Source of the DNA: a virus
Virus record (IMG/VR): IMGVR_UViG_3300044714_000052
Location: 3,580 to 67,579 of that record
DNA length: 64,000 bases
Direction: 5' to 3' (one strand)
Below the pieces are notes generated by a model. The model saw only the letters and a list, made by a program, of their open reading frames with translations. It searched no databases and was not told the origin of the DNA. Positions 7,981-31,499 of the stretch are shown here, piece by piece. The position numbers and the translations under genes are program-made. Position 1 is the first letter of the stretch. Each line of letters opens with the position of its first letter.

Positions 7981-8171
7981 TGATGAACCCGACCATCCGC
8001 GCTGTCTCGCACGAAAACCGGCGCCGGCACGCGTCTGCTTTGCGTCCGATCGCGCTGCCGCAACAGGGCGAGGCTGAGAAGCCTTTCATGGTTCCGGCAG
8101 GTTCGGAGCGCTGCGGATTGCCGGACGCGCTCACTGTACCGCTGTCGGAGATGGCGGAGGTGCGGCTGTGA
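7977..8171 (+). CDS. Hypothetical protein
   Basis: RBS, ATGA-coupled. Confidence 0.5.
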   Translation: MMMNPTIRAVSHENRRRHASALRPIALPQQGEAEKPFMVPAGSERCGLPDALTVPLSEMAEVRL

Positions 8172-8727: not shown

Positions 8728-9374
8728 TGGCAACTTCACCGCGCGGCTACCATGCAGCCGACGGCGAGCGGGTGCCGTCAGTCACGACTATCCTGAGCCG
8801 GTTTAAAGAATCCGGCGGCCTAATTCATTGGGCTTGGCGGTTAGGCACTGAAGGCAAGGACTATCGGGAGGTCCGCGATCAAGCGGCCGATGCGGGAACA
8901 TTAGCCCATAAAGCCGTTGATGCATGGGTGCGCGGAAACATCCCTTCTTTTGAGCATGCCGACGCCATCGTTTCCGAGCGCGCCCAAAGAGCTTTCGAGG
9001 CGTTTTGCAAATGGGCTGAACAATCGGCTCTCCGAGTGACGCAGAGCGAGGTCAGGATGATCTCGGAAAATCACCGCTTCGGAGGCACCTGTGACGCGAT
9101 CGTCATCGGCAATCGCCGGGCCATCTGCGACTGGAAATCGAGCGCCGCGATTTACCCCGAATATCTCGTCCAAGTCAGGGCCTATGGCCATCTTTGGACA
9201 GAGACGCGCGACGGCGAGCCGATAGATGGCGGCTATCATTTGATCCGCTTCGACAAGGAATATGGAGATTTCCACCATCATTTCTGGTCCGAGCTAGACG
9301 ATGCATGGGAGGCTTTCCTAGCGCTTCGTCGACTCTACGACATCGACAAAATCCTCAAGGCGAGGGCCAAATGA
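8727..9374 (+). CDS. PD-(D/E)XK exonuclease (phage recombination)
   Basis: PSVTTIL, GT..H, FGGTCD, DWKS, Q..AY motifs. Confidence 0.85.
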   Translation: MATSPRGYHAADGERVPSVTTILSRFKESGGLIHWAWRLGTEGKDYREVRDQAADAGTLAHKAVDAWVRGNIPSFEHADAIVSERAQRAFEAFCKWAEQSALRVTQSEVRMISENHRFGGTCDAIVIGNRRAICDWKSSAAIYPEYLVQVRAYGHLWTETRDGEPIDGGYHLIRFDKEYGDFHHHFWSELDDAWEAFLALRRLYDIDKILKARAK

Positions 9375-10918
9375 GCGAGCACGAGATCATTGTTCCCGGC
9401 AAGCCAACGCGTGCGACCATGATTAAGGGTCTCGTGCCAGCGCTCCCGGAGCGCGGCAAGATCAAGATCGGCTACAAGGGGCGCGTTATAAAGTCCCGCC
9501 TCGGCAATAAATTTCAGCCGCCAGAGAAACTTGACCACTTCCTCATCACAACGACCGAGCGCGACTCCACAGACAATTTCAAAAAAGACGCCGAAATCCA
9601 TAAGCGGCTTGGCGAGAAGCCAACCGAAATCCCGGTGCGTCTTCTCTACGATGATCCGACGCTAAATTTCCCGACCCGTTACGCTTGCTTCCGAGGCCGC
9701 ACCTTGTGGTGCTCTGGCGACGGAGAGCGGGCGAGCCGCCTAGCGAACGACGGCACCTATCATGACATTCAATGCCCATGCCCGCGTAAAGACCCAGGAT
9801 ATGCCGGCCCCGATAAGTGCAAAATGAACGGCGCGCTTTCGGTGATGATCGACGGTGCTGGCGGGCTCGGCGGCGTCTGGAAATTTCGCACCACATCTTA
9901 CAACAGCATCGTCAATATCTTGTCGGCAATGGCATTGCTGCGGAGTGTTACCGGCGGAGCGCTTGCCAACATCCCGCTCATCCTGCGAGTTGGCCCTAAA
10001 CAGGGGACCAAGCCGGATGGCTCACCAGTGACGATATTCATGGTCTCTCTTGAATATCCCGGCGACGCCGACTCACTACAGCAGCGAGCCTTGGCCCGCT
10101 CGCAGTCGATGATGAACATCGCTAGCATTGAGGCCGAGGCGCGCCGGATGCTTTCCTTGTCGCCACCTTCTATCCCGCTTGCTGGCGATACGGTCAGCGA
10201 TGTGGTGGAAGAGTTCTACCCAGAGCAGGTATCCCCGGCAGATTACGATGAGACTACCGGGGAAGTCCATCACACACTGGAAGAGCGAGCGCGCCATTCT
10301 GCGGCCGCTGGCAAAGATGCCCTGGCTGTCTTTTGGAAAGCGTTAACTCAGGACGAGCGCCACGAAATCAAAGGCTTGGTACTGCCGCCTAAACCTGGCG
10401 AATATGCCGAGCTAACGCATATCGCCATCGCAGCGGATGCGGCGCGGGCATTAGCGGAGGCTAATGCGGCGGACGATGCCGCTGCGGCTGCGGCTGAAGA
10501 ATTGCCGGACGACCCATTCGGCTTGCCGCCGATCACAGAACAAGCTCAGCCTGACGCCCAGGCCGAGCCGGCCGAGGAAGGTTCCCCTCCCGCCCCTTCC
10601 TCGGCCGGTCCAGATCGACCTTCAGTCGTGGATATGCTCGGAGCCCGATCGGACAAACTTCATACGGACTCTGAGGTTTCGCTGCCGCCACGGCGTGGGG
10701 CGCTCATCGTCGATTTCCGCACCGACCTCGTGGGCGAGGCCATGCACGAAGCGACGTGCGACGACCTGATCGCGGCGTTCAAGGTGCTGCCCACGCTGGC
10801 CGAGATGCACCGGTTTATCAAGGCCAACTCGCAGACAATCCAGGCGCTGTCGGACGAGGCGGACGAGCGCTGGCGCGAGGCGTCGGCGGAGAGGATGCGG
10901 GAGAAGGCCGATGGCTGA
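9371..10918 (+). CDS. Gp3-like (recombination directionality factor-like) protein, possibly a strand-annealing protein
   Basis: LPERGKIKIG.KG...PEKLDHF, WCSGDGE, CPC, GGVWKFRTTSYNS; long acidic tail. Confidence 0.75.
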   Translation: MSEHEIIVPGKPTRATMIKGLVPALPERGKIKIGYKGRVIKSRLGNKFQPPEKLDHFLITTTERDSTDNFKKDAEIHKRLGEKPTEIPVRLLYDDPTLNFPTRYACFRGRTLWCSGDGERASRLANDGTYHDIQCPCPRKDPGYAGPDKCKMNGALSVMIDGAGGLGGVWKFRTTSYNSIVNILSAMALLRSVTGGALANIPLILRVGPKQGTKPDGSPVTIFMVSLEYPGDADSLQQRALARSQSMMNIASIEAEARRMLSLSPPSIPLAGDTVSDVVEEFYPEQVSPADYDETTGEVHHTLEERARHSAAAGKDALAVFWKALTQDERHEIKGLVLPPKPGEYAELTHIAIAADAARALAEANAADDAAAAAAEELPDDPFGLPPITEQAQPDAQAEPAEEGSPPAPSSAGPDRPSVVDMLGARSDKLHTDSEVSLPPRRGALIVDFRTDLVGEAMHEATCDDLIAAFKVLPTLAEMHRFIKANSQTIQALSDEADERWREASAERMREKADG

Positions 10919-11369
10919 CGCGAACCCGGAGCCGGGCTGGTACCTCATTACGCACACAAGCCGGCTGCCGGAATGCTGGTTTCGTCGGCGTGACGGGCGC
11001 TGGTCACCGCATCGCTATCATGCGTTCCCGACAGATGAACTCCCCGAAGGTTGGGCCCTCGGCTCGCGCATCGACGACCTGCTGCGCGATGCAACGCGGT
11101 ATCGGTGGCAACCAATAGGGACTGCACCCAAAGACGGGTCGCGTGTTCGTTTGTTCATCCCTTACCTCGCAGAGGCATGGGAATGTGAGGACACCGGAGT
11201 CTGGAAACAGGACGAGGGGGAGTGTGGCTGTTGGCGATTTGAAGGTGACGACGGGCCAGATGACATGCAGCCTACGCACTGGATGCCTCTCTCGGAACCG
11301 CCGAGTCTTGCTGAAATCGATGCCGAAATTGCGCGTGACGCCGAGGTCGCGCGGGAGAAGCGGCCGTGA
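10911..11369 (+). CDS. DUF551-like protein
   Basis: WQPIGTAPKDG ... PTHWMPL. Confidence 0.75.
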   Translation: MADANPEPGWYLITHTSRLPECWFRRRDGRWSPHRYHAFPTDELPEGWALGSRIDDLLRDATRYRWQPIGTAPKDGSRVRLFIPYLAEAWECEDTGVWKQDEGECGCWRFEGDDGPDDMQPTHWMPLSEPPSLAEIDAEIARDAEVAREKRP

Positions 11370-11638
11370 GGTGCGTGGTGTGTCAAGGCAGTGGCAAGCA
11401 AACAGTTGTCATCGCGGAACGTGAGAATGGCGAGCCGTACATCATCGGGCGACTTCCCTGCAAGCACTGCAACGGCAGCGGCCACTCCTATTGCTGTGAT
11501 GATGCTGGCGCCGGAATAGCTGAAGGCGGCGTCTCCAGCCCGGAGCCCAAGTTTAGCCGCTGTTTTGAATGTGGGCTTGAGCCATACGAATGTCGGTGCC
11601 CAACGCCCGGAAGGGCGCAGCCGGAGGATGCGCCATGA
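11366..11638 (+). CDS. Zinc-finger protein (DnaJ-like CxxCxGxG repeats)
   Basis: CVVCQGSG, CKHCNGSG, CCD, CFEC. Confidence 0.7.
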   Translation: MRCVVCQGSGKQTVVIAERENGEPYIIGRLPCKHCNGSGHSYCCDDAGAGIAEGGVSSPEPKFSRCFECGLEPYECRCPTPGRAQPEDAP

Positions 11639-18795: not shown

Positions 18796-19288
18796 CTCGC
18801 AACTCTGCGTCCGCAAGCGTCTGCTGCTTTGCCCGCTGCGCCAAGTCCGCCTGCAATTCGCTGATCTTCTCTTTGCCGGCCTCAATGATGCCAATTATCT
18901 CAGCCGATGGCTCCGTTCCGCGTTCACGGCTGACCGCAACTGCCTCTTCGGCGAGCTTCAATTGGCCCGTCACTGCGTCTAGCTGCCCCTGGATGGCTTT
19001 CGTGAGATCGCTGTTGACAAGGGTGTGGATCACCGCCGCCGTTGCCGCGATGCCGTCGAGCTTGTCGAATGTGGTCGCCGCAGTCTCGACAACCTGCCTG
19101 TTGGACTTAATGAGCCGCAGGGCAACCTCGTCCTGCCGGGCGTAATCGCGGCGTTCTTTATCAGCGGCGGCGCGCGCATTCATCTTCGACAGGATAACCG
19201 CGCCGACAAAGGCGATCGTACCCGCACCGCAGGCGGCCATGACGGCCGAGCCGCCCGCGATCCACTCGATCTGGACGAGAGGGTCCAT
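18785..19288 (-). CDS. Membrane protein of the lysis region (holin-like)
   Basis: N-terminal TM helix; IHTLVNS motif common near phage lysis genes. Confidence 0.6.
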   Translation of the reverse strand: MDPLVQIEWIAGGSAVMAACGAGTIAFVGAVILSKMNARAAADKERRDYARQDEVALRLIKSNRQVVETAATTFDKLDGIAATAAVIHTLVNSDLTKAIQGQLDAVTGQLKLAEEAVAVSRERGTEPSAEIIGIIEAGKEKISELQADLAQRAKQQTLADAELRDAR

Positions 19289-19692
19289 CAGTTGATCGAG
19301 AGATGCCGCTGGTGCGGGCCGCTGTCGCCGGGGCTCATGCCGAGCCCAGACCACGTGTGGTCGCCGACATGGCATGCAGCATCCATGTGCTGCGGCACGT
19401 TGAGGGCGCTCTGGTAGTTGGCGACGGCTCCGCGCGTCTGCGGCCCGCAGAGACCATCGATCCGCCCGTGGTAGTAGCCCTTGGCCCTCAGCGCAGTTTG
19501 CAGGCTGACAACGTAGGCATTCGAGTTCGCCGCCGCGGCCGTCTCTTGCGGTGCAAGCATGACCGGAGGAGGCGCTTCGTAAGCGGTGGGCGGCGCCGGA
19601 GCCGACTCGGGTACAGGGGCTGGCGCTGGCTCGAACCACGAGCATGCGGCCAGGGAGAGCGTGAGGAGTGCGATCGAGATGATCTTGATCAT
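19288..19692 (-). CDS. Lipoprotein with a peptidoglycan-binding domain
   Basis: LAAC lipobox; LQTAL..KGYY.G.IDG..GPQT..AV..YQ. Confidence 0.85.
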   Translation of the reverse strand: MIKIISIALLTLSLAACSWFEPAPAPVPESAPAPPTAYEAPPPVMLAPQETAAAANSNAYVVSLQTALRAKGYYHGRIDGLCGPQTRGAVANYQSALNVPQHMDAACHVGDHTWSGLGMSPGDSGPHQRHLSIN

Positions 19693-19702
19693 GTGGCTTC
19701 TC

Positions 19703-19987
19703 CTAAGCTGCCTTGACCGGGAGGCCCATCTGATTCGCCGTGGCGGACTTTACCGCGCCAGCATGCGCCATCTGGGCTGCCCGGAATTTCTGCCATAGCG
19801 ACCATGCGGCGGTCCCGAGCCCGACGGCGATGCTCGCATAAAGGGTCAATGTGCTGTCGGGGATGTTGGTCGCCGAGCCGGCGACGATGCCCGCTCCCGA
19901 CAGCAGAGCGAGCACGCTGCGGATGACCGAGGCTACGAGTGTCACGGTCTGTGGGTTTGGCGTTGAAGGGACGAATGTGGGGTCCAT
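19703..19987 (-). CDS. Putative holin
   Basis: Two TM helices, IRSVL and WSLWQK motifs. Confidence 0.7.
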   Translation of the reverse strand: MDPTFVPSTPNPQTVTLVASVIRSVLALLSGAGIVAGSATNIPDSTLTLYASIAVGLGTAAWSLWQKFRAAQMAHAGAVKSATANQMGLPVKAA

Positions 19988-20118
19988 CAGAATTTCCTCT
20001 TTTTGCGCGCTTGGTCAGCTTCCTCGGCTATCCGCGCGATCAGCAATGCGGCGATTAATAACGCCAAGCCCACGCAGACGATCGCCATAAGGACGTGCGG
20101 GTCGATTTGCTCGCTCAC
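19987..20118 (-). CDS. Small single-TM protein (43 aa, not in the ORF track)
   Basis: MSEQIDPHVLMAIVCVGLALLIAALLIARIAEEADQARKKRKF; coupled at both ends. Confidence 0.5.
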   Translation of the reverse strand: MSEQIDPHVLMAIVCVGLALLIAALLIARIAEEADQARKKRKF

Positions 20119-20415
20119 GGCGGCATGCCCAGCTTCCGCCGCGCCTCGCCAAGATGCGGCCGGTAGTATTCGGACGGCGGAACATGCCGCTCGGGCTGAT
20201 GGCAGTAGTGGTACAGGAACAGGTGCGCGGTCCAGGCCGCCATGTCAGCGTGATCCTCAAGATGCCACAGTGCGGCCTCGTGCCAGGACTGGCGGCACTC
20301 GCGCTCGGTCTCGGTCATCGGCGCTCGCGGCAATCTATCTGCCACGACGCCGTCCCGCCGTAGAGCATGTTTTCGTGCTCCCAGAGGTAGAGCCACCACT
20401 TCGGATCGGCGCAGG

Positions 20416-20949
20416 TCATGCGTATGGTCCCTGCGCGGCGAATCCGTAAATCCAACCGTCATCTGCAAATGACGTATTCCATTGCGATGCTTGCCCATAC
20501 TCGCGGAGCAGCCAAAGATTGACGACATCTTGGCTCGCGGGCGAGAAGTCGGGAACGCCAGTTGCCACTTGTGCTGCCGCCCACGTCGCCGGCTCGTCTT
20601 GCCCCGCCCCGGCTGCGTGCGTCGGCGAACCGTTCACCGTCACTCCGGCCCAATCAGGAAAGGTGGCGAACTCCGTGAAGCGTGTGAAGCCGTAGAGGAC
20701 ATTGTAGAGCCCCTCGCTCTGCTCGCGGTAGATTTGGCCGAGGATGGATTGCTCCTCTTGGGTGGGGTCGAATTGAAAGAGGGGCGTCGTCACTAGCGCT
20801 GCTTTCGGCTTCAGCATAAACGGCCGGAATGGCGGCGCTGGCCCTTTCGTAATCGGCGCTACCTGGATGAACGGGCGCGACCTGAGCGGGGGCGACGGTC
20901 GGTTTGGACCGTCGTAGGGCGGCGGCGAAGGATACGGAGACGGCTTCAC
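20416..20949 (-). CDS. Lysozyme-fold muramidase/endolysin (lambda R-like, divergent)
   Basis: SEG.YNVLYG, THAAGAGQ...TW, DFSPASQD. Confidence 0.7.
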   Translation of the reverse strand: MKPSPYPSPPPYDGPNRPSPPLRSRPFIQVAPITKGPAPPFRPFMLKPKAALVTTPLFQFDPTQEEQSILGQIYREQSEGLYNVLYGFTRFTEFATFPDWAGVTVNGSPTHAAGAGQDEPATWAAAQVATGVPDFSPASQDVVNLWLLREYGQASQWNTSFADDGWIYGFAAQGPYA

Positions 20950-21347
20950 TGGATCACCGGGGTTGGGGGAATGGCGGTCGTCGTGGGCGCAGTCGCGGGA
21001 GGCGTCACCGAGCCCGTCGGCGTGACCACAGGCCCAGTCGTTATCGTGCCAGTAGGCGTTCCTGGCGGCACGATCGGCACCGCCGTAGTCGTCCCTCCCG
21101 CCATCGTCGGTAGGGTCGGCATCGGCGTGCCGTCAAGCTGCGCCTTCAGCATTTGAAGCTGAGCGGTGATGCTGGCAATCTGCCCGATCTCGGCCCCGAC
21201 CTGCGTCGCAACCGTGGCCGCCGGAATGCCGAACAGGCCTGCGGCCTCGCCGCCAATGCCGCTCGCGCCGCCCGCTGCGCTCAGGGCGCCCTGCGCCGCG
21301 CACCCCGCCAGAGCAAGCGGCAATGCCGCCCAAAGAATTTTCCTCAT
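20946..21347 (-). CDS. Lipoprotein with a Pro/Thr-rich tail
   Basis: MRKILWAALPLALAGC lipobox. Confidence 0.7.
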   Translation of the reverse strand: MRKILWAALPLALAGCAAQGALSAAGGASGIGGEAAGLFGIPAATVATQVGAEIGQIASITAQLQMLKAQLDGTPMPTLPTMAGGTTTAVPIVPPGTPTGTITTGPVVTPTGSVTPPATAPTTTAIPPTPVIQ

Positions 21348-21447
21348 TTCAGCCTTCCAATCCAGTATGGGGGCCAGCATCCCCAAAGGGCAACGCCGCC
21401 AATACACAGCCAAAACACAAAGCCGAGCCAATGAGCAATCATTTCGC

Positions 21448-21654
21448 TTACCTGACGACAATCCAGAGCCCGTCCGGCCCGAAGTTGAATTCCTGGCGTT
21501 CGCCCTTGGCGTCGCATAGCAAGCAAAGCCCATTCTCGACGTTGGCACACAGGATCAGCCCCGGCACGTCGGCCATCGTGTCGCGGCGCACGAGCTTGTA
21601 GCGGCTCCGCAGGGCTTCGCTATCGGCTGCGCTCAGGCTGCGTGGCAGCATCAT
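21448..21654 (-). CDS. Hypothetical protein
   Basis: Coupled ORF. Confidence 0.55.
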   Translation of the reverse strand: MMLPRSLSAADSEALRSRYKLVRRDTMADVPGLILCANVENGLCLLCDAKGERQEFNFGPDGLWIVVR

Positions 21655-22112: not shown

Positions 22113-25100
22113 TCACGACGGCGGGCTGTCCGGCGTCGCCGGGTAGAAGGTGTCCTGGTACGCATAACGGCAGTCATTCGGCGTGTAGTTGCCCCCCGCG
22201 GCCTGACCAGTAACCAGCGGAAGCGGACCGCCTACAGCGTTGAGAATGCGGTAGTCCACATCGGCCACGACCGTCGTGGCCGGCGACACCGGGCCTCCCG
22301 TAAAACCAGAGATGCCAAGAGAATTTGCCCAGCATCCGAGAGACCGCATCTGATATGGGTAGCCCGCTTCGACGCCGTAGCCGGCAGCATCCAGCAGGTT
22401 GGGCGTGCCGGGCCAATTGAGCTTACCAGCAGTGCTCATAAAACCACTGAGAGCGTTGGGGTTGCCTCCCCACGTCGCGGTGAAAGTCGCCCCCGTCCCG
22501 GTCCCGCCGGTCACCGATAGCGTCCCGGTCGGCACGGCGCTATACATCCCCGGATTGGTCACGGTGAAGGTCTGAATGACGCCGCCGCTCACGGTATTGA
22601 CGGTTATCTGCGCCGCCGACCCGCCAATCCCGGAATTAGCGACAGTGCCGCCTGTTATCGTCAGCACATCGTTTACCGAGTAAGACCCACCGCCGCTGAC
22701 TTTTGTGGCTCCTGTGCAAGACCCCGAGACGATAGCGATCGCCGCATTCGTCGGACTGCCTTCCGCAAGGTTGAAGGTCGCGCCGACCCCGCTGCCGCTC
22801 AGATCGCGAACGTAGTACGTCTTGGTGTAATCAAGCTGGACAGGGTATGTGAGTGGCTGATAGCTGGGATTGGGAATGTAGATGTCGCCGTTATTGATCC
22901 CCGTCCAATTGTATGCCGAGCCTAGAGTGCTCACGGTGAAATACGGTGAGCCGGCCGTTGACCAAGTAGTAGAGCCATTGCGCCAGTTCTGATCGCCCCA
23001 TCCATATCGGGCGTCGCTCGATACTGGGGTGCCGGGAGGATTCGCCCCGCTAGGGAGGGCCGTAAACGGAGTGGATGGGTAATACTCGCCCTGCCTCGTC
23101 AAATAGGCATAGTTGAAGAACCACCCGAAGTTATTCCCCATGTAGTTCCAATACTTGGCAATGATGTTTTGTAGAAATGATCGCGCATCGAGGTTGCCGC
23201 GAGCGGCAGCGACGCACATCACCCAGGCGACATAGGTAAGCTCGTAGGTCGCCCCCGTCTGAAAAACGACATTGACCCCGGAGCCGTTGTTGTTCAGCGT
23301 CAACCAAATCCCGGCATTAAAACAATAGGCATAGGCAGAGGGATCGCTGACATTGTAAATCGCCTGGGCTTCCGCAAGGTACTGAGTGCTGTCCGCGCAC
23401 ACCAGCCCGAACTGCGCCACCGGGAACTTGCAACTCGCGTCGCCAAGATCATTAAGATACTGTCCCATCTGCGACCCGGAGACTTCTGTGTAGACGGGAT
23501 TAGCTCCGGTCGGATCAAACGAGTACAGAAGTGCCGCATACTCCACGGCTCTCATGGTCCAAGAGATTGCGCGATACTGCGTGTTGACATACGTCGTTAC
23601 GCCAATCGCATTGTAGGGGCTATCGCCGTTGGCGACGGTCGGGTTGCGCACGCTAATGGGCCACGTGGAAATGGCCCTTTGTGCATTATTCACCATGTGG
23701 TCGAGATACTGAAGCTCGCCCGTCCGATAATATGCCCACGTAGACATATTCGGTTCATGGGCAACATCGTCGTACATCCCCCAGGAACAGACATTCGAGC
23801 CGGGATTTGTAAACCCGGCATAGTTTCCCCGAGGACTCCAATAGACCGTCGAATAGACCGGGCCAGATGGCCCCGTTCCCGCGACCCCGGTGTAGCTTGC
23901 CGAGAGAAAGTTTAGATTCGTGTCGGTTGTCTTGTCGTGCAGGTCTTGTGCCCACAGGCCGCCCCCATGCCCGTAAAAGCGGATGGCGCGGTCGGAGTTT
24001 ACGCTGGGCGTGAAGAAGTCATTGGCAGCCATGCCGGGGATAATCCCCAGCCACGCCAAGTCACCACCCGTTCCGTTGCCGGTGTCGTCCGACACATCGC
24101 ATCGGTTGTAGGGATTCCAGGCAAATGTGTAGGTGGTGTCAGCTACCGAGCCGATTGAGCCGAGATCAAATGCCGGGATGACGCCGCTCGATTGCCAATA
24201 TTGCTGATTCTGCACCACTCGCAGCGTGGTCTCGGCGGAAATCCCGCTCGTTCCGCTGCCGACGAAAAAATTATAATGCCCAGTCGTCGTCGCATTTTGC
24301 AGCACCGTAAAGGGTGTCTGGGCCGCGACCAATGTTGCCGTAAATGTCCCTGCGGCAAGGGTTTGGCCGCTATCGCTCTCCATGTTGGACAGGTTCCATA
24401 TGCGGAGCGTCCCAGCGGTCGGCGGATAGGTGTTCCACGACATCCACAGGAAACCGACGCCGCCCGATATGACGACCGGCAGCAGCGTCCCGTCCCCACC
24501 AGCGCCATCGTACCAACCGGGGATCGAAGTCCACGCGTAGTTCCCCGCGCCGTCAGATGTGAATGTCGCCGACGCAGGCGAGGGGAACCAGGTCCAGGCG
24601 TGCGAATTGCTGTTCTCAACCCAATTCAGTCCGCTCGCTGGCGAACCCGAGTTCGGCGCGACCCAGGCGACGGGGTTCTGCTTCCCGAGGCCGCCATCGT
24701 AGTTGTAGAACGGCTGGCGGATGTGATGCAGGACACGAAAGGCGCCAGCCCCGCCGGAGGCGTTGTTGAGCGCTTGGACGTAGTAGTTCGTGGCCAGCTG
24801 CCCGTCCGCCGATCCGCCGACTGTCGAGGCCATGTTGCAAGAAATCTTCCAACCCGTCCCAGCCCCGCCATCGAGCCACTTGCTGATCTTGTACGTATTG
24901 GCGTCGCCATTGCACCACGACGAGATCGTCCCGCTCCGGCCGCCGATCGTGGGCGAGAGCGGCGGGCAGACGATCTCCATCCCTTGCGGGTAAACGTCGG
25001 TGCTCAGACTCCGGCCCGATGCGCTGGGCCATGGGCCGGCCCCGCCATCGGTGATCGTGACGGCCTGTGAGCCGCTGCCCGCGATGGTGAATGTCGGCAG

Positions 25101-25466
25101 AAGCTGGAAAGTGGCAAACATCAGCGCGCCGGACTTGTAGTACCGCTGCAACCCGGCCGAGAACGGCTGCGTCACCCCTCCGACTTTGAACTGCGGGACG
25201 TGTCCGCTCGGAATATCACCGTCCTTGAAGACCTGACCAAAGGTCTGAGTCGGCACGCCCGATGTCTGCGACGAGCCGCTATCGTTTACGAGCGTGACCG
25301 TCGTGGAAAACGCGGATGGCCCGCCCCCGCCACCGCCGCCACCAAAGAGATGCGGCCGAAATGCCTCAACCGCCTGCGGCAGCACCCCGAGCGTGAGCGC
25401 TGCGAGCAGCGCCTGCCCGATCGAGCGCCGGGTGAACCGCAGAACGGCTTTGCGGATTTCGCTCAT
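22113..25466 (-). CDS. Large exported polysaccharide-lyase-like protein (PcRGLX/YetA-like architecture)
   Basis: Signal peptide with TRR; TFGQVFKDGDIP N-terminal barrel; HEP....AYYRTGELQYLD; RAISWTMR. Confidence 0.6.
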   Translation of the reverse strand: MSEIRKAVLRFTRRSIGQALLAALTLGVLPQAVEAFRPHLFGGGGGGGGPSAFSTTVTLVNDSGSSQTSGVPTQTFGQVFKDGDIPSGHVPQFKVGGVTQPFSAGLQRYYKSGALMFATFQLLPTFTIAGSGSQAVTITDGGAGPWPSASGRSLSTDVYPQGMEIVCPPLSPTIGGRSGTISSWCNGDANTYKISKWLDGGAGTGWKISCNMASTVGGSADGQLATNYYVQALNNASGGAGAFRVLHHIRQPFYNYDGGLGKQNPVAWVAPNSGSPASGLNWVENSNSHAWTWFPSPASATFTSDGAGNYAWTSIPGWYDGAGGDGTLLPVVISGGVGFLWMSWNTYPPTAGTLRIWNLSNMESDSGQTLAAGTFTATLVAAQTPFTVLQNATTTGHYNFFVGSGTSGISAETTLRVVQNQQYWQSSGVIPAFDLGSIGSVADTTYTFAWNPYNRCDVSDDTGNGTGGDLAWLGIIPGMAANDFFTPSVNSDRAIRFYGHGGGLWAQDLHDKTTDTNLNFLSASYTGVAGTGPSGPVYSTVYWSPRGNYAGFTNPGSNVCSWGMYDDVAHEPNMSTWAYYRTGELQYLDHMVNNAQRAISTWPISVRNPTVANGDSPYNAIGVTTYVNTQYRAISWTMRAVEYAALLYSFDPTGANPVYTEVSGSQMGQYLNDLGDASCKFPVAQFGLVCADSTQYLAEAQAIYNVSDPSAYAYCFNAGIWLTLNNNGSGVNVVFQTGATYELTYVAWVMCVAAARGNLDARSFLQNIIAKYWNYMGNNFGWFFNYAYLTRQGEYYPSTPFTALPSGANPPGTPVSSDARYGWGDQNWRNGSTTWSTAGSPYFTVSTLGSAYNWTGINNGDIYIPNPSYQPLTYPVQLDYTKTYYVRDLSGSGVGATFNLAEGSPTNAAIAIVSGSCTGATKVSGGGSYSVNDVLTITGGTVANSGIGGSAAQITVNTVSGGVIQTFTVTNPGMYSAVPTGTLSVTGGTGTGATFTATWGGNPNALSGFMSTAGKLNWPGTPNLLDAAGYGVEAGYPYQMRSLGCWANSLGISGFTGGPVSPATTVVADVDYRILNAVGGPLPLVTGQAAGGNYTPNDCRYAYQDTFYPATPDSPPS

Positions 25467-26554
25467 GGGAATGTCAGCCCGGAGAAGAATGCCTCCGTGT
25501 TCGCCTGGTAGGCCGCCTGATCGCCTGAAGCGTTCGCGTTATTCGTGAAGGCGACATCAAACATGATGCTCGGAGCAGGCTGGCTCAGATCGCCGCCACC
25601 GCCGAAGTGAACGTGTGTGCTGGGGTTCATAGAAGACTGCGGAATCTGCGGCGTCCAGGACAGATGTCCGTTCACTTCGCCCGACACAATGTTCGCGGGC
25701 TCATTCCAGCTAGCAAATCCTATAACATTCAAAACCGATGAGCCAAGACTATTGCCGGCCGGCAGGGTATTGCTTTCGATATCGAGGAGTTGACAAAAAA
25801 CATTCGCAGAGACGCAGTTTCCGAAGCTACCAGTATTGGTGTACTGGAATCCCATACCGAAGTCAGTGCCCGGTGTGTCGGCTCCATTATAGGCGTGGGA
25901 GATGAGGACGGTCGCGCAGCACTGAGCCGCGACTTGGACCGCTGTCCCAGTAAAGAACTCGCTAACACTTGATGAATTCCCCCCGGTAATCCCGGTTGCC
26001 GTTCCATCGCTGGCGAGCGTGTACTCACAGTTTAAGCCTGAAAATGTTGTGCTATCCAGCGGCACCTGGGGCAGACCCGTCGTCCCGTTCACCTGGAGAG
26101 GACATGCGCAATTCAACCCGCCACCTGAACAATTTGGACCGAATGGGTTGGCGTTGAAAACTGAAGGAACCGAATTGTTGCCGGTGCCTTGGATTTGAGC
26201 GTAGATGATGGAAATCGCGCAGTTGGAATAAGTGCCGCCACAGAACGACAGTACCCCGCTCATGTTCGCTGCGTGAGCGCCCGTTTGTGTAATGTTAGTC
26301 GTCATCGATGGTGACGAGAACAGCGCGATTTGCAGAAGCGGCCCAGAATATGCCGAGGTCATCGCCCGATCGACCGACCACGCCTCGGCGCAGCCGCCTG
26401 TGATCACGTCGCACGGACCGCTATATGAGCCTTCCCCGCCGCCACCTCCGAAACCATGCCCGAGTGGCCGAAACGCCTCGGCCGATACCGGAGATAAGTA
26501 GAGCGCAAGGGCGACGAGCAACAACCCTGCGGCGGCTTTGACGACTTCGCTCAT
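25463..26554 (-). CDS. GH54 alpha-L-arabinofuranosidase B catalytic-domain-like protein, exported
   Basis: GPCDV..GGC..AWS..RA..SAYSGPL; vicinal CC; DIE; GGGGDLS; signal peptide. Confidence 0.8.
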   Translation of the reverse strand: MSEVVKAAAGLLLVALALYLSPVSAEAFRPLGHGFGGGGGEGSYSGPCDVITGGCAEAWSVDRAMTSAYSGPLLQIALFSSPSMTTNITQTGAHAANMSGVLSFCGGTYSNCAISIIYAQIQGTGNNSVPSVFNANPFGPNCSGGGLNCACPLQVNGTTGLPQVPLDSTTFSGLNCEYTLASDGTATGITGGNSSSVSEFFTGTAVQVAAQCCATVLISHAYNGADTPGTDFGMGFQYTNTGSFGNCVSANVFCQLLDIESNTLPAGNSLGSSVLNVIGFASWNEPANIVSGEVNGHLSWTPQIPQSSMNPSTHVHFGGGGDLSQPAPSIMFDVAFTNNANASGDQAAYQANTEAFFSGLTFP

Positions 26555-27231
26555 GACGCGGGGGGAGCGCCCCCAAAGGAGATATGACAGTTCGTCCCGT
26601 CGCTCGAAACCCAAGCGGTTGCGCTGGGGCCATAGACCCACAACCCGACTGTCTGAGCGCCGGGTGGCTGGTCGGCCCACGATCCTGACGATAGCTGTAG
26701 CACCAGCGGACCCACCCCGGTTGTATCAAAGTAGCTAGGGGCAGAGATGGTGGAACAGGGCGGCAGTATGGCGGTCGCAACAGAAGACGAGTTCATCTGA
26801 TACCAGTTCGCGAGCGGCGCTGTCAGGGTGATGCTTCCCGTCAACAGCGTAGGACCGCTGCCGCTCGGCTGCGTTGGCGCGCTGCCGCCAGACGAGCCGC
26901 CGGTCGTGGTCCCGCCCCCGGCCGAAGGCGCGCTTGCCTCTTGGGTCCAGCCGGAGCCGTTCCACAGGAACCACACGCCCGGAGAGACCGAGGTGTTCTC
27001 GGCGTACAGCGCGCCACCGGAGACTTCCATGACCGCGGCCTCGCCGCCGTCGGCGGACACGCCGTTGCGCAGGACGTAGTATTGCCCGGCCTGCGGTGCG
27101 GTCCCGCCCCAACTCCACGAAGCCCCATCCGAGGTCGTGACGGTTCCGGTCGGGGCATTGATGGTCTGGGCCAGTACCGCTGCGGGCAGCATCATCGCCA
27201 TGAACGCGAATATTTTCAGCATGATCCACAC
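26551..27231 (-). CDS. Exported two-domain protein of the tail module
   Basis: Signal peptide (AVLA-Q), Trp-rich beta domain, Gly/Ser linker. Confidence 0.65.
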   Translation of the reverse strand: MWIMLKIFAFMAMMLPAAVLAQTINAPTGTVTTSDGASWSWGGTAPQAGQYYVLRNGVSADGGEAAVMEVSGGALYAENTSVSPGVWFLWNGSGWTQEASAPSAGGGTTTGGSSGGSAPTQPSGSGPTLLTGSITLTAPLANWYQMNSSSVATAILPPCSTISAPSYFDTTGVGPLVLQLSSGSWADQPPGAQTVGLWVYGPSATAWVSSDGTNCHISFGGAPPAS

Positions 27232-28319
27232 GGAGGAGGGAAGGTCAGCGTCGAGAAGAAGGATTGGATGTTGTTCTGCGCATCTGTCGCATCAGCCTGG
27301 CTCATCGTCCCGTTGGTGATAATCATCTCTCGGCAGAAGCATGGAGCAGGCTGGCTCAGATCGCCGCCGCCCCCGAGATGGATCGCCAGATCGGTGTTAA
27401 CGTGATCGCTGAAATCGGCGAGAAAGGCGCCATTAACATAGCTGTGGATGGGCATGCCGCCGGACACTGTGTCCCACGCACCGATGGTGACCCTGTTCCC
27501 CTGTGAGGTAGCATAGTCGCCGAGCGGGAGCGCCGGATTGCCGCCGCCCTCCATCCGCAGGCAGTAGGTCGTGCTCGATCCGCATTGGTTGCCTGAGATG
27601 AGCCCGTTTCCATACCAGACCCCCGGCCCCAGATCGTAACCGTCGTTGGGGTTGTCGGGGAGGCTGTTCAGGTGTGCGAGTTCAAAGTGTCCGCAGCAGA
27701 CGGCGATCGGCTGATCCTGTTCGTTTATCAGCACACTCGACGGGGAAGAACCGCCGGTCACTCCGGTCGAATTGGCATCCCCGGAGATGTAGTAATCGCC
27801 GTAAAAACCGTTCGTATTGGCCACTCGGGTATCGACGATCGGCAACCCGGTGGCGACCTCGATCTCGAACGGCGCGGCGCAGAGGTAGGGACCGCCACCA
27901 GTGCAGTTCGGGCCGTACTGAGTATTGATCGTGATCGGGACCAGCGTGTTGGGCGAGCCTTGGATGGCGTCGTAAAATGCCGCGTAATAGCACGTCGTTG
28001 ACACTAGGACCGCAGTGCCGTAGTGGGTCGTCGAGGTCATGCTGCCGCCGCAGAACGCCGCGTAGGTTGAAAGATCGACGGTATGATTTGCGGTCTGCCC
28101 GACATTCAGTGTCGATGAGCCGTTCCATAACTGGAACAGGGGCCCACTGTAAGCACTGGTCGGCGACCGATCGACATCGTAGGCGACGGCGCACCCGCCG
28201 ACGATGACATCGCACACCCCCTGATAGGTGGGGGACGCCCCCCCTACAAACCCCGCGAACCTATGTGGGCTGAAGGCGCACAGCGCCAAGAGCAGCGCGA
28301 GGAAGGCAAGACGCCTCAT
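27216..28319 (-). CDS. Second GH54-like catalytic-domain protein, exported
   Basis: GVCDV..GGC..AY...R..SAYSGPLFQL; vicinal CC; GGGGDLSQPAP; signal peptide. Confidence 0.8.
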   Translation of the reverse strand: MRRLAFLALLLALCAFSPHRFAGFVGGASPTYQGVCDVIVGGCAVAYDVDRSPTSAYSGPLFQLWNGSSTLNVGQTANHTVDLSTYAAFCGGSMTSTTHYGTAVLVSTTCYYAAFYDAIQGSPNTLVPITINTQYGPNCTGGGPYLCAAPFEIEVATGLPIVDTRVANTNGFYGDYYISGDANSTGVTGGSSPSSVLINEQDQPIAVCCGHFELAHLNSLPDNPNDGYDLGPGVWYGNGLISGNQCGSSTTYCLRMEGGGNPALPLGDYATSQGNRVTIGAWDTVSGGMPIHSYVNGAFLADFSDHVNTDLAIHLGGGGDLSQPAPCFCREMIITNGTMSQADATDAQNNIQSFFSTLTFPPPCGSC

Positions 28320-29083
28320 GGCTTTAGCGCCAGTTCCGCATACGCGGATTGCGTGCCGCCGACAACCGTCAGATTTCCACCATACGTACCTGTGCCAGTC
28401 CCCTGCTGCGTCAGAGCGAGACCACTGACACCCGTCGTCCAAGTGCCGCCGGTCGCCGTCAGCGAACTCGATCCCGAGTTGCCCCAGCCCGCCAGAAAGA
28501 TGAGGTCATTAGAAAACGATGTGGTGGCGGAAAGAGAGAAGGCGACTACATTTGATCCAGTATTCCCCGCGCCATTTCCTCCTTCATAGATGGTCCCTGA
28601 CGTGGCTACGTTTTTTGCTTGATAAATCTCCCCTGCAAATGGCTGGGTATTGTTGGATGTGATTGCTACCGATGTGCGCCCTGATGCTACATTTGGGCAA
28701 ACTATCCACGTAATGTATGAGGGAGCTACGCCAGCATTCCCGCTATTTTGAGCAACGGCACAAGTATCGCCGCCGTCATTGATCGTGTAGGTCTGTAGAG
28801 AGGAGTTCGTTAAATTGCCGAGCGGGATTACGAGAGCATATCCCGCTACCGTCGCGGGAATCGTAAAACTGCAACCGGACGTGCAGCCAGACGATTGAAA
28901 TGGAACATTCGTGTCTTGGGCGACGGCGGGATTGCTGCCGCCACCACTCGATGTCGGCGCCATCGCGAGGTTGGCGACCCTGAAGCTGAGCGCGGGCTGT
29001 TGCGCTTGCGCGCCAACGGCAACGAGCGCCCACAGCAGCGCTGCGGCGGTCAGGCTGAGACGGCGGATCATTGCTAGGCTCAC
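28316..29083 (-). CDS. Exported beta-rich tail-module protein
   Basis: Signal peptide (AQA-Q); Thr/Gly/Ser-rich. Confidence 0.65.
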   Translation of the reverse strand: MSLAMIRRLSLTAAALLWALVAVGAQAQQPALSFRVANLAMAPTSSGGGSNPAVAQDTNVPFQSSGCTSGCSFTIPATVAGYALVIPLGNLTNSSLQTYTINDGGDTCAVAQNSGNAGVAPSYITWIVCPNVASGRTSVAITSNNTQPFAGEIYQAKNVATSGTIYEGGNGAGNTGSNVVAFSLSATTSFSNDLIFLAGWGNSGSSSLTATGGTWTTGVSGLALTQQGTGTGTYGGNLTVVGGTQSAYAELALKP

Positions 29084-30813
29084 TGGAGGGTCAGGGTGAT
29101 CGCGCCGGCTGCCGATCCTGAGGAGCCAAAGCCGGTCCCGGTGAATACAACGCCCACGTCATCACCGGCCGGGATCGTGGCGCTCGCGACGCCCATGTTT
29201 TGATCTTCCAACGCGGTGCCGTTGCCGTTGCACGGCGTTGTCGCGATCGCCGTACCGCTGCCGTAAGCCGTACCAGCGCCGCTGAAATTGGGCGTAACAT
29301 AATAGACCTGAGCGCTCGCCGTCGCGCCCGCCGCCGCGTCAATCCGGCATTTGACAGCTACGACGGTCCATGCAGCCTCGTTACCGGGCAGAACCATCGT
29401 GAGGCCATTGCTGATCGCGGTGAGGTTCTGCCCAGGAGCCCAGGACAGAGTCGGGTTGGCCTTCCGACTGCCACCCGTTACCGACAGGGACGCTGTCTGT
29501 GCCGCCTCGCAAGTGCTACCCGATTGGAGGCATGCGACTTGGTAGTTGCCTGGGCCAAAGACGATACTAGTGCTGACCGTGTTCCCGTTGACGCCATCAC
29601 CCGTCCCTGGCGTCACTGTGAAGCTCTGTCCCTGTGAATTGATGAAGATGCCGCCATTCGCTGGCAGCCCCGAGACGATCGGGAAGACAAAGGTTTGCCC
29701 GCTCGCCGTCACCGTGCAGGTTAGGCCAGCGCTCCACTGTGCGGCGCTGAAGGTCTGCCCCGCGCATGGGGTCTGGACCGGCGAACCGACCTGGTTCGTA
29801 AGCACCCAATCGGTCGAGGCGACGTTATAGGTGACGATGCGCTCCGTGTTCAGCGCGATCTCGCCAGAAACCAGCGCGACAAACCCGGTGGGTATCTGCT
29901 GAACGATAGGCACAGTGGTGCCGCCGCAGCCTGTCAGGGTCGCGGCGCCCGTATTCGTCGCGTTGAACACGATGTGGATCGTCGGCGCATTCGCCAGCGC
30001 GCAGCCTGAAGACGGGAACAGCCCAGAGAGCGTGTAGGCGTTAGTCGAATTGGTCGTCGTGGCGCTGAAGGCGGCGGGCGTGCCCCCGCAAGCGGAGCCA
30101 TTATCCTGGACGCCAGGCCCCCACTTCAGACAATTCCCCGTCGTGATCGCCCCGTCTTGCGTCGGGAATGAGCCCGTCGTACCGGGCGCAATCGCGAGCG
30201 CGGTCGTGACGCCGGTGCCCGGAACAACGGTGCCCGCAAGTCCGGTTCCTGAGGCCCATATGCCGAATGCGCCCGTCGAGATCGAACCCGAGGTCGAGAC
30301 ATTCCCGCTGCCGCTCGGCGTCACGCACGTGCCATCGCCTCGGACGAAGTTGGTCGTGCTGGCGCTGCACAGTGTCGATACGGCCGCGCCAAGGTTGGTT
30401 GACATCTGCGCGGCCGAAGCCGAGCCGGCCAGGTTAGAGAAAGCTGGCTGCGAAAGCGTTGCGACGCCCGCAGCAGAGATCGAGCTAACCCACTCATTCG
30501 AGGAAGCGCCTCCGCCAGTGATATTGAGGGAAGCCGTCCCTGTGCCCGTAAGGGGGGTTGGTGAGAAGACGATCCCGGCATTCCCCGCCGTGATGCTGAC
30601 CGAGCCGCCGCCGCCTGGGCAACTCCCCGTTCTCACGTTGCCGCCGGAATCCAGGACAAGCCCGCTCGCGCAGGTCCCGCTCGCCAAACCTGACATCAGC
30701 GGGGTTCCGAGAACCGTGAGATTCTGTACGGTTGGCGAGGGATAGGTCTGCGCCCGCGCTGTGCCGATACCGGCCAGAGCCACAAACGCCAGAAGAGCCA
30801 GGAGCTTTTTCAT
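29080..30813 (-). CDS. Tail fibre-like protein with a signal peptide
   Basis: MKKLLALLAFVALAGIGTARA; fibre motifs FVRGDGT, SQPAFSNLAG, NATNTGAATL; many Cys pairs. Confidence 0.75.
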   Translation of the reverse strand: MKKLLALLAFVALAGIGTARAQTYPSPTVQNLTVLGTPLMSGLASGTCASGLVLDSGGNVRTGSCPGGGGSVSITAGNAGIVFSPTPLTGTGTASLNITGGGASSNEWVSSISAAGVATLSQPAFSNLAGSASAAQMSTNLGAAVSTLCSASTTNFVRGDGTCVTPSGSGNVSTSGSISTGAFGIWASGTGLAGTVVPGTGVTTALAIAPGTTGSFPTQDGAITTGNCLKWGPGVQDNGSACGGTPAAFSATTTNSTNAYTLSGLFPSSGCALANAPTIHIVFNATNTGAATLTGCGGTTVPIVQQIPTGFVALVSGEIALNTERIVTYNVASTDWVLTNQVGSPVQTPCAGQTFSAAQWSAGLTCTVTASGQTFVFPIVSGLPANGGIFINSQGQSFTVTPGTGDGVNGNTVSTSIVFGPGNYQVACLQSGSTCEAAQTASLSVTGGSRKANPTLSWAPGQNLTAISNGLTMVLPGNEAAWTVVAVKCRIDAAAGATASAQVYYVTPNFSGAGTAYGSGTAIATTPCNGNGTALEDQNMGVASATIPAGDDVGVVFTGTGFGSSGSAAGAITLTLQ

Positions 30814-31499
30814 GCTATCGCGATAACTCCCCCTTGATTGTAAAGCTGCCCTGAGCCTGGGCCGGGATTGGTCAGAGGAAGATTGCCGCCGCCGAGCGCC
30901 AGCAATGCCGCAGCGGTTATGTTGCCGAAGAAAACCGGGGGCGCGGATGGATTTGGCGTCACGCCAGGCACGACGGTAGCAAGCGCGCCATTGCTCCATA
31001 GCGAGCCGGCCGGCAGGGAAACCGAACTGGTGGGCCAAGCCGCCGCAGTCGCGACAATCAGCCAGCCCCCGTCATTCGAGAGCAGGGTCGTGATCGGCGC
31101 CGAGCCGGAGCCGGCAAAGCCCACAGACCCCGAGATGCCGCCAACAAAGAATTCAAGCACCGTGAACGGCGTATTCGGAGCGGTCGCGCTGCCGTTCCAT
31201 GCCGACCAGGTACCCTCTATCGGCAGCCCACCGCCGGGCGGGATCGGGATGCTGCCGGGGCCACCAGCCGCCAGGGGATTGTTGTTGCCGTCCTGCGCCG
31301 GGCAGATTAAAGCTGTCGCCGTGGCTGAAAGATTCGCGAAGTAGACTAGGTTCCTTGCCCTTGCCGCAACAACTAGCTGCGAGCCCGTACCAAGCAGTAT
31401 CGGCCAGCTAACAGGCGATACTGCCTGCCGTCTGGTATTTGTTACCGCAATAACAGGTGGCCCGAAGCTCTCAAAAAAAGGCGCCGTCTGGGCTGCCAA
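30810..31499 (-). CDS. Tail-associated structural protein (no signal peptide)
   Basis: TTG start with AAGGAG; LP.T.PG.GSGQL.N.GGVIAI C-terminal motif seen in phage fibre proteins. Confidence 0.65.
   Translation of the reverse strand: MAAQTAPFFESFGPPVIAVTNTRRQAVSPVSWPILLGTGSQLVVAARARNLVYFANLSATATALICPAQDGNNNPLAAGGPGSIPIPPGGGLPIEGTWSAWNGSATAPNTPFTVLEFFVGGISGSVGFAGSGSAPITTLLSNDGGWLIVATAAAWPTSSVSLPAGSLWSNGALATVVPGVTPNPSAPPVFFGNITAAALLALGGGNLPLTNPGPGSGQLYNQGGVIAIA

Follow-up and report, generated by a model that had tools for sequence, protein, structure and literature searches.

A short peptide behind the predicted signal peptides of three putative phage glycanases and its possible role in docking

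The locus and its shared peptide

The window analysed here is a stretch of 64,000 nucleotides from a virus, corresponding to positions 3,580 to 67,579 of the IMG/VR record IMGVR_UViG_3300044714_000052, the full contig of which is 67,579 bases long. Its late operon lies on the minus strand and contains, between positions 22113 and 28319, the genes for three predicted exported enzymes of 1117, 363 and 367 residues, each of which carries a short peptide of the same type directly behind its predicted signal peptidase-type site. This shared post-cleavage tag is a real feature, whose function remains a proposal. The best explanation, to which a probability of roughly 45% is given, is that a portable export leader, a cationic-aromatic cap and an oligo-glycine tether have been placed before interchangeable glycanases, and that the cap would act as a docking handle after cleavage.

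The residues around the predicted sites read VEA-FRPHLFGGGGGGGG in the 1117-residue protein, AEA-FRPLGHGFGGGGG in the 363-residue protein and LCA-FSPHRFAGFVGG in the 367-residue protein. These strings had been quoted by the initial annotation of the stretch and are all present in the translations where it placed them, whilst its statement that the peptide directly follows a cleavage site agrees with credible predicted sites in all three proteins. The tag and glycine run of the 1117-residue protein occupy positions 25320-25361 (minus strand, codons 36-49) and those of the 363-residue protein positions 26435-26473 (minus strand, codons 28-40), and the tag of the 367-residue protein lies at 28239-28274 (minus strand, codons 16-27). 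The glycine linker that had also been described behind the tag is present in the first two proteins only; the third has just the short glycine-containing spacer AGFVGGAS and no glycine run.

A six-frame translation of the whole 67,579-base contig was searched with the strict pattern F[RS]P.{1,6}[FW].{0,5}GG, which gave exactly three matches, each at residue +1 of a predicted cleavage site. A looser expression combined with a filter for a hydrophobic stretch returned the same three proteins only. Since all three of the contig-wide matches fall directly at predicted cleavage sites, chance placement is excluded, and the shared post-cleavage motif on the three exported enzymes is real and non-random. 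Only the enzymes of the gene block carry it. The other exported proteins of the window, six in number, are untagged, and their mature parts start with glutamine in four cases and with alanine in the remaining two, which are the small ones.

A terminator-like hairpin at 25352-25373 (minus strand) overlaps the AVEAFRPH codons of the 1117-residue gene. The idea that the tag is an RNA- or DNA-level element was rejected, as the three tags differ in codon usage, and the overlap is probably due to chance because the other two tags use different codons.

Export leaders and cysteine content

In all of the tagged proteins the tag is preceded by a leader of 15-36 residues with a small-x-small motif at its end. 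Six of the seven proteins of the block share a basic n-region, a hydrophobic core of 12-15 residues, a proline or glycine before the end of the leader and small residues at -3 and -1, with the proline or glycine sitting 4-6 residues ahead of the small-x-small site. The 363- and 367-residue proteins and their relatives display, as read from their sequences, the positively charged n-region, the h-region of 10-15 hydrophobic residues and the c-region of a general secretion (Sec)-type signal. A Tat signal is marked by the motif S/T-R-R-x-F-L-K ahead of the h-region. The leader of the 1117-residue protein contains T-R-R-S-I-G-Q, where its relatives P0070 and P0073 have T-R-R-N-F-L-L, and appears to be of a twin-arginine translocation (Tat)-like kind. 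The Pfam model TAT_signal (PF10518) gave no match on the 1117-residue protein at E<=5, and its matches in P0070 (E=0.13) and P0073 (E=0.076) are below the cut-off. The leaders of the 363- and 1117-residue proteins are partly homologous (MSE..KA... EAFRP), having their first eight codons and the EAFRP junction in common, and the 15-residue leader of the 367-residue protein is unrelated to the other two.

The mature parts of the seven large signal-peptide proteins of the window contain 16, 14, 4, 14, 2, 12 and 12 cysteines, all even numbers, and those of two small signal-peptide proteins contain 2 each. The internal virion proteins of 725 and 1544 residues have no cysteine, and the other leaderless virion proteins have 0-6. 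Judged by leader and cysteine content, the proteins with leaders bear the hallmarks of true exported, disulfide-bonded proteins, the leaders presumably being cleaved by signal peptidase. That the hydrophobic N-termini instead stay uncleaved, as membrane anchors or virion-binding helices with FRP..GG as a hinge, is scarcely credible. Such a reading takes its start from the fact that cleavage is deduced, but the hydrophobic regions span just 12-15 residues, with a helix-breaking proline or glycine and a small-x-small motif behind them in every tagged protein, the mature parts have paired cysteines, and the cellular homologues of the GH54-like enzymes are lipoproteins or secreted.

The same leader architecture is found outside the block in a 692-residue protein and in two small proteins encoded between the capsid and tail genes. 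The 692-residue protein (45264-47342, minus strand) has an AFA-QAVIQ junction and 16 cysteines, together with sub-threshold pectate-lyase-like (22 bits against a cut-off of 27) and endosialidase-N-terminal matches. The two small proteins, of 166 and 135 residues, have their first codons at about 50013 and 50417 (minus strand). In another viral record at least six signal-peptide proteins are encoded in succession at 2691-11611 (locus L004 of record G003), and several of them look tail-fibre-like by eye; their mature parts start mostly with glutamine, and the series ends with an untagged GH54-like enzyme that has a C-terminal extension.

The tagged enzymes

The 1117-residue protein is predicted to be an exported enzyme and is encoded at 22113-25466 (minus strand), as established from the open reading frame translation and characterised with an AlphaFold2 model and Foldseek. 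It is formed of the Tat-like leader (residues 1-35, RFTRRSIGQ...VEA), the tag FRPHLF, eight glycines and a three-domain body that resembles PL26/PcRGLX. The model has a predicted local distance difference test (pLDDT) score of 54, with residues 22-51 below 50, and consists of beta domains followed by a helical domain, the tag and glycine run being modelled as disordered. Foldseek returned 13 PDB matches at E<=1e-3, and the best ten of these are all chains of the PL26 exo-rhamnogalacturonan lyase PcRGLX (E 1.7e-6 to 3.5e-5, template modelling (TM) score 0.25-0.32). The PL26/PcRGLX fold is composed of a RIFT barrel, a beta-sandwich and an alpha/alpha toroid. A look-up in a language-model protein atlas gave PcRGLX families at a score of 0.81, a lead, and the Pfam family PF19501 (PcRGLX_1st) was seen in the relative P0070 only, below the cut-off (E=0.0032). 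The 1117-residue protein itself has no Pfam match and no sequence match in the PDB. It can be regarded with moderate confidence as PL26-like on the strength of the model.

The 363-residue enzyme, GH54b (25463-26554, minus strand; Pfam PF09206), is predicted to be exported and has a Sec-type leader (residues 1-27), the tag FRPLGHGF, the run GGGGG and a catalytic domain that begins at YSGPCDV. It matches PF09206 with 32.7 bits, against a cut-off of 25, over profile positions 1-94 only. The 367-residue enzyme, GH54a (27216-28319, minus strand), likewise predicted to be exported, is assigned from a sub-threshold PF09206 match (18.6 bits) and its homology to GH54b, with which it shares 36% identity over 353 residues, and it comprises a Sec-type leader (residues 1-15), the tag FSPHRF, the spacer AGFVGGAS and the catalytic domain. 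Its counterpart at the locus L003 is 98.6% identical. A profile of 26 GH54-like sequences matches the AbfB structures 1WD3 and 6SXT with E ~1e-8 over about 400 positions, and the family-invariant aspartate of GGGGD aligns with the aspartate of GIGGD in AbfB, while the alignment around the presumed nucleophile is unreliable. A BLASTP comparison of the 1117-residue protein with either GH54-like protein gave no match at E<=1e-3, so the initial annotation was right that it is otherwise unrelated to the pair; by the assignments above, the tag stands before enzymes whose folds are unrelated.

Relatives of the GH54-like proteins in cells are lipoproteins or secreted proteins of Polyangia. A scan of genome contigs for GH54-like relatives found only such Polyangia-type cellular homologues (34 loci) and indicated no phage host, and a tblastn search of cultured phages with GH54b gave no match.

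The phage and the seven-gene block

The phage is temperate and podovirus-like. Its late operon encodes terminase, portal, protease, major capsid protein, four paralogous phrog_394 tail proteins, a tail protein of 1026 residues and internal virion proteins of 239, 725 and 1544 residues, and an integrase gene and a tRNA-Val gene are located at 13-15 kb of the window. The four phrog_394 genes are consecutive (42497-45282, minus strand; 206-312 residues), compared with one such gene in Pseudomonas phage Ab31 and three in G003. A weak GcrA-like match at 2820-3638 (minus strand; E=1.6e-4, below the cut-off) is the sole hint of an alphaproteobacterial host, and the host may thus belong to this group.

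The tail protein of the window is 30% identical to that of Ab31, in which the tail fibre is encoded by the gene after the internal virion proteins and is followed by an O-antigen acetylase. The corresponding slot of the window holds seven genes coupled by ATGA or GTGA overlaps, which are followed by the lysis region. In order, these encode a leaderless protein of 229 residues, proteins of 577 and 255 residues, GH54a (tagged), a protein of 223 residues, GH54b (tagged) and the tagged 1117-residue protein. Four-base overlaps with the stop codons of the genes upstream agree with starts at 25466 (1117 residues), 26554 (363 residues) and 28319 (367 residues). A search for sigma-70-like promoters between 19.5 and 32.5 kb gave none, and the eight terminator-like sites are not enriched over the 9.3 expected from shuffled sequences, hence the block looks like part of the late transcript. 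The lysis region (19288-21548, minus strand) encodes a 134-residue lipoprotein with a peptidoglycan-binding domain, a holin-like membrane protein of 94 residues, an endolysin-like protein of 177 residues and an unusually long (~160 residues) Pro/Thr-rich lipoprotein, which occupies the position where an outer-membrane spanin might be expected.

Three of the untagged proteins of the block have signal-like leaders. The 223-residue accessory protein (26551-27222, minus strand; mature start QTINAP) is formed of an N-terminal domain of about 80 residues, a Gly/Ser/Thr linker and a conserved C-terminal domain of about 95 residues. No match for it was found in Pfam, PHROG or NCBIfam, and its full-length homologues are P0074-P0077. 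A further protein of this kind, P0117, and the tagged P0124 are each recorded for a contig of 10,777 bases, which may be the same one. The N-terminal domain (residues ~19-100) is rich in tryptophan and glycine, has no Pfam match and is present, one to seven times per protein, in GH28, beta-helix, polysaccharide-lyase, GH5-like and sedolisin-like proteins from metagenomes; it was detected in 43 library proteins at E<=1e-3, 17 of which were scanned with Pfam, ten with a match. By this distribution it behaves like an undescribed carbohydrate-binding module and is a candidate for a new family.

The 255-residue accessory protein (28316-29083, minus strand; AQA-QQPAL junction) resembles the C-terminal extension that is fused to the GH54-like enzymes of other phages (BLASTP against the C-terminal part of P0030, E=2e-5; alignment A3) and is 92% identical to a 238-residue protein of L003. 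Its AlphaFold2 model, also from alignment A3, has a pLDDT of 43 and is unusable. The 577-residue fibre-like protein (29080-30813, minus strand; ARA-QTYPSP junction, 14 cysteines) is rich in glycine, threonine and serine and is 44% identical over 536 residues to a 749-residue protein of L003; a family search in Pfam, PHROGs and NCBIfam gave no match. Neither NCBIfam nor PHROGs gave a match for any protein of the block. The leaderless first gene (30810-31499, minus strand) encodes the 229-residue protein, for which there are weak leads only: a match to Pfam GP38 with E=0.03, and atlas rows, viral without exception and scoring 0.80 or lower, in clusters that include Mtd_N, T4_gp9_10_N and an upper-tail-fibre name. 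One of these rows, at 0.76, is a cluster with T4_gp9_10_N in 42% of its members, a lead at best. The protein has no homologue in the L003 module and is possibly a virion fibre or adhesin.

Distribution of the tag among phages

Besides G003, two further viral records, G001 and G002, hold the loci L002 and L003, respectively. Six-frame scans of whole records found three F-type tags in the contig of the window, two F-type tags in G002 and three tags of an RFP type in G001, and no others. G002 is a 122-kb phage of a different build, without a phrog_394 match, in which block and tags are the same as those of the window. The RFP type represents a second allele, with the junctions TEA-RFPPRGMGG, ADA-RFPPRGGAGGGG and AAA-RFPHGGAG on three different enzymes, namely a GH54-like protein with a fused extension and proteins of about 800 and 1290 residues. 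The latter two appear by eye to have beta-helix-type repeats, the Pfam Beta_helix family giving a non-significant match to the first (E=0.27) and none to the second. Altogether the cap takes the forms F-(R/S)-P..H..F in the window, F-x-R-x-G-x-x-F in relatives and R-F-P-P-R in another phage. A link between the tag and the phrog_394 tail genes was considered and rejected, as G001 and G002 are tagged without phrog_394 and G003 has three copies and no tag.

The three tags of the window stand behind a Tat-like RR leader, a Sec leader that is partly related to it and the unrelated 15-residue Sec leader, and in L002 the element RFP(P/H)(R)GG comes after two Sec leaders that are related to each other and after an RRR leader that is unrelated to them. 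As far as sequence comparison can tell, the cap therefore follows leaders without detectable similarity, and does so in two independent alleles, each being uniform within a phage and different between phages.

A survey of PL26-like proteins comprised 20 sequences, of which 15 have a leader and five are leaderless or fragments. Ten of the 15 are tagged, that is, their mature part starts with phenylalanine, contains arginine and ends in a glycine run; the tags are FRPHLFGGG in four proteins and FQRPGHDFGGG, FQRLGHDFGGG, FQRLGHGFGGS, FQRLGYGFGGG, FHRLGSGFGGG and FHIPRIGGG in one each. Two more read ..MG FRRFGGGGGGG with an ambiguous cleavage site, and three are untagged. One of these three, P0119, has a leader of the window type with LGLRRGGS instead of the tag. 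The leader and tag of the 1117-residue type are 94-100% identical in P0064, P0066, P0068 and P0072, whereas full-length proteins of the PL26-like family share only 31-53% identity.

Amongst the GH54-like proteins, the strict tag is found in the two window proteins, the L003 copy, P0037, P0051, P0127 and the L002 enzyme, and tag-like starts (RHFFGGG, FRPG, FWRGG and RWPGIGG) are present on four others. A maximum-likelihood tree was built from 63 catalytic domains, cut at the first conserved cysteine motif and trimmed to 345 residues, with the incomplete or odd sequences P0052, P0058, P0063 and P0062 and the L003 copy set aside. Five of its 62 rows with a readable N-terminus are strictly tagged, and these five require five changes on the tree; all lie in a phage-type clade of 31 rows (support 99) and none in the Polyangia-type clade of 32 rows. 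Tagged and untagged proteins occur as sister pairs (P0051 with P0053, and L002_592 with P0048), and the leaders of P0051 and P0053 have been swapped with a junction at the glycine spacer. The scatter of the tag over this tree indicates that it travels with the leader and not with the enzyme. Sequence comparison makes a firm case that the leader, cap and glycine spacer form a constant cassette before exchangeable catalytic bodies, with crossover at the spacer. This supports the interchangeability of the enzymes that had been put forward in the initial annotation, given the near-identical leader and tag on bodies of 31-53% identity and the sister pairs. The absence of the motif from homologues, which the initial annotation had named as a refutation of its idea, holds by half: most homologues are without it, the tag being rare in the GH54 tree (5 of 62) and frequent in PL26-like proteins with a leader (10 of 15).

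In a comparison of the window with G002, the nine tag codons (FRPHLFGGG) of the 1117-residue type show four synonymous and no non-synonymous differences, the 35 leader codons five synonymous and three non-synonymous differences, and the rest of the protein is 31-41% identical. The cap thus seems to be kept at the protein level, on thin evidence.

The exact FRPHxFGGG coding pattern has one other occurrence in viral records, in G002. It has 111 matches in a metagenome collection, and inspection of the printed contexts by eye showed a signal peptide ahead of none of them; the Joint Genome Institute (JGI) contigs with P0037, P0066 and P0068 are absent from these matches. Scans of viral contigs with the single proteins of 1117, 229 and 363 residues found no relatives, and a scan with the 56-residue leader found L003 only. 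Given one other viral record and none of the 111 metagenome matches, the tag looks private to a small phage group and does not look like a general bacterial sorting signal. The same count speaks against the view that the cap is read by the host envelope, whereby the N-terminus would be tied, covalently or not, to peptidoglycan or the outer membrane so as to hold the enzymes in the periplasm until lysis. The anchoring of the N-termini of outer-membrane proteins to peptidoglycan by LD-transpeptidases is a known process, with Ala-Asp in Hyphomicrobiales and Gly-Gly in Coxiella (review PMC12729407). It resembles the present case in that the signal exists only after signal peptidase has created a new N-terminus. 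The host may be alphaproteobacterial, and the tag alleles could track hosts. Unlike those N-termini, the window proteins and their relatives start with F-R/S-P, F-x-R or R-F-P, that is with phenylalanine or arginine, and the carriers are soluble enzymes and not beta-barrels such as those treated in that review. A host-envelope function is therefore regarded as very improbable.

A proposed function for the cap

It is proposed that the phages of this group place a cassette of an export signal, either Sec-type or Tat-like, a short cationic-aromatic cap and an oligo-glycine tether before polysaccharide-degrading enzymes of GH54-like, PL26-like and beta-helix types. Cleavage by signal peptidase would leave the cap as a free, flexibly tethered N-terminus, and the cap would then dock or anchor the enzymes to one shared partner. 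This partner is most likely to be a co-exported, non-catalytic protein of the block, either the carbohydrate-binding-like 223- or 255-residue protein or the fibre-like 577-residue protein. Several glycanases and sugar-binding modules would in this way be held together non-covalently outside the cytoplasm and be freed together at lysis. A modular cassette, unrelated leaders, uniformity within each phage and the marking of enzymes only are what would be expected of a docking handle that is read by one partner. Moreover, the block moves between phages with different tails, so that a phage-encoded receptor is to be expected inside it, among the 223-, 255- and 577-residue proteins. The neighbouring untagged proteins resemble binding modules that are fused to enzymes elsewhere, which makes a non-covalent assembly plausible.

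The main rival to this proposal, though itself unlikely, is that the cap has no job of its own and is a fast-evolving junction between the signal peptide and the glycine spacer. Its shared features would then stem jointly from recombination of whole 5' cassettes, with crossover in the GGN-rich spacer, from the general needs of export and cleavage, and from protection of a floppy N-terminus against exopeptidases, an X-X-Pro start being an alternative to the pyroglutamate-forming glutamine start of the untagged proteins. Much of what weighs against a docking handle speaks for such a junction. With the same leader the cap is plastic even among close relatives (FRPHLF, FHIPRI, FQRPGHDF, FQRLGHGF, FHRLGSGF and FRRF), its proline is not invariant, the order of its residues is not fixed, and in P0119 it has been lost to LGLRRGGS. 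Most of the GH54-like homologues, including all 32 of the Polyangia-type rows, are without it, the swap between P0051 and P0053 breaks at the glycine spacer, the untagged exported proteins of the block mostly start with glutamine, and the tag and glycine run are modelled as disordered. In addition, common descent of the two partly homologous window leaders would explain part of the resemblance between the tags of the 1117- and 363-residue proteins.

Against a mere junction stands the recurrence of the same cap after dissimilar leaders in two independent alleles, which gene conversion of some seven codons alone is unlikely to bring about, and its limitation to the enzymes of the block. As a rule, arginine at +1 to +3 disfavours Sec export, and its retention at these positions suggests selection. 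The tag codons differ by four synonymous and no non-synonymous changes, and P0073 and P0120 retain F..R..F-GG without any proline. The docking handle is still preferred, with the further reservations that the synonymous count is a small number and the evidence of selection thin, that the Tat model is silent on the 1117-residue protein and below threshold in P0070 and P0073, that cleavage is predicted only, that the tag appears confined to a narrow phage group, and that the searches of the block turned up no docking partner.

The last of these reservations concerns the initial annotation directly, which had suggested that the enzymes attach to a scaffold such as the 577- or 255-residue protein on the virion. 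No cohesin, dockerin or T4gp10-like domain was found in the block with Pfam (E<=0.01 for seven proteins, E<=5 for five), and this includes the two proposed scaffolds. A complex prediction for the 223-residue protein (residues 20-223, alignment A4) and the tag of the 1117-residue protein (residues 36-75, alignment A2) gave a score of 0.01, which in a run without controls is evidence neither way. The virion part of the suggestion fares no better, as nothing places the enzymes there, and their export signals and paired cysteines indicate instead that they leave the cytoplasm, where tailed virions are built.

A modified form of the suggestion would have the enzymes fold in the periplasm and become attached through the cap, at lysis, to the virion or to an exported fibre that joins the virion. 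The block does lie in the slot of the tail fibre, as does the Ab31 fibre, in that slot only the small 229-residue protein is without a leader, no other large leaderless fibre is encoded, and the 692-residue signal-peptide protein, with its sub-threshold pectate-lyase-like match, stands among head and tail genes. Short, group-specific N-terminal peptides are also known to dock extra depolymerases on tails (PMC6872550). On the other hand, nothing tested supports a virion placement, no T4gp10-like branching domain was detected, and the open-access papers that were searched describe no tailed virions being assembled anywhere but in the cytoplasm. The tag and block are also found in the 122-kb record that lacks the four phrog_394 genes, so any receptor would have to travel within the block. 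This modified form is accordingly considered improbable.

Comparison with described systems

In the open-access literature that was searched, no shared post-cleavage tag was found described on exported phage fibres, tailspikes or depolymerases. The closest described logic seems, by analogy, to be the 'conserved peptide' of secondary depolymerases in branched receptor-binding protein systems (K1-5/K1E/SP6, KP32, KP34, Menlow and PhiK64-1), in which conserved N-terminal docking peptides of down to 7-11 residues, specific for a group, dock extra depolymerases on the tail (Latka et al. 2019, PMC6872550). As in these systems, a short, group-specific N-terminal peptide is found on unrelated, horizontally exchanged depolymerases whose genes are neighbours at the position of the tail fibre. 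In the systems of that article, cytoplasmic virion proteins begin with the peptide itself, and its docking site is a branching domain of the T4gp10-like kind, whereas the peptide of the window lies behind a Sec-type or Tat-like leader, continues into an oligo-glycine leash and has no detected T4gp10-like domain to go with it, and the proteins that carry it are built for an oxidising compartment.

The nearest solved exported tailspike-type glycanase is WceF of Pantoea stewartii, a trimeric, tailspike-like exopolysaccharide glycosidase with a Tat signal that is encoded in the stewartan cluster (PMC7949094). It too is an enzyme of phage-depolymerase type with a twin-arginine export signal, and it acts on the surface glycan of its own cell. 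Unlike the window enzymes, WceF is chromosomal and not the product of a phage late gene, and the portion of the article that was available describes no post-cleavage tag or co-exported partners (PMC7949094). Prophages of Porphyromonas gingivalis encode signal-peptide proteins that obey the Bacteroidetes Q-rule and have no assigned function (Matrishin et al. 2023, PMC10367356). They resemble the present phage in having proteins adapted to general secretion, four of the six untagged window proteins likewise starting with glutamine, and they differ from it in the phylum of the host and in that no Phe/Arg cap or enzyme cassette is described in the accessible part of that paper.

The window also invites comparison with cellulosomes, a likeness that the initial annotation had drawn. 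In the cellulosome, a calcium-binding domain of about 70 residues, folded and usually C-terminal, serves as the dockerin, and the cohesins are recognisable domains on the scaffoldin. The likeness consists of different glycoside hydrolases that bear one docking element and of a non-catalytic scaffold with carbohydrate-binding modules, whereas the element of the window has only 6-10 residues and no dockerin or cohesin family matched a protein of the block. Three other resemblances were discarded: a signal like N22 of the curli protein CsgA, because the enzymes are too large and too folded for a CsgG-type channel, an N-degron for ClpS, because ClpS is cytoplasmic, and an amino-terminal copper- and nickel-binding (ATCUN) motif, because there is no histidine at position 3.

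Significance

Should the cap prove to be a handle, cleavage would switch on a docking signal of very small size, with exported polysaccharide-degrading enzymes shuffled behind one constant address label. The 'conserved peptide' principle known from branched tail-spike systems would thereby reach proteins whose maturation takes place in the periplasm. The tag of 6-10 residues, together with its receptor, could then serve as a tool for the assembly of enzymes on scaffolds. If the cap is only a junction, it would be a tidy example of cassette shuffling at a glycine-coding spacer. The boldest picture, which is a long shot, is that tailed phages of this group add a share of their host-recognition and depolymerase parts outside the cytoplasm, with the cleavage-exposed Phe/Arg cap snapping glycanases, exported by Sec or Tat and folded under oxidation, onto a co-exported fibre or carbohydrate-binding scaffold and thence onto released virions; such a 'virion cellulosome' would amount to a plug-and-play docking code that differs from phage to phage. 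The finding bears on the puzzle of why the fibre- and depolymerase-like late proteins of many uncultured phages carry export signals.

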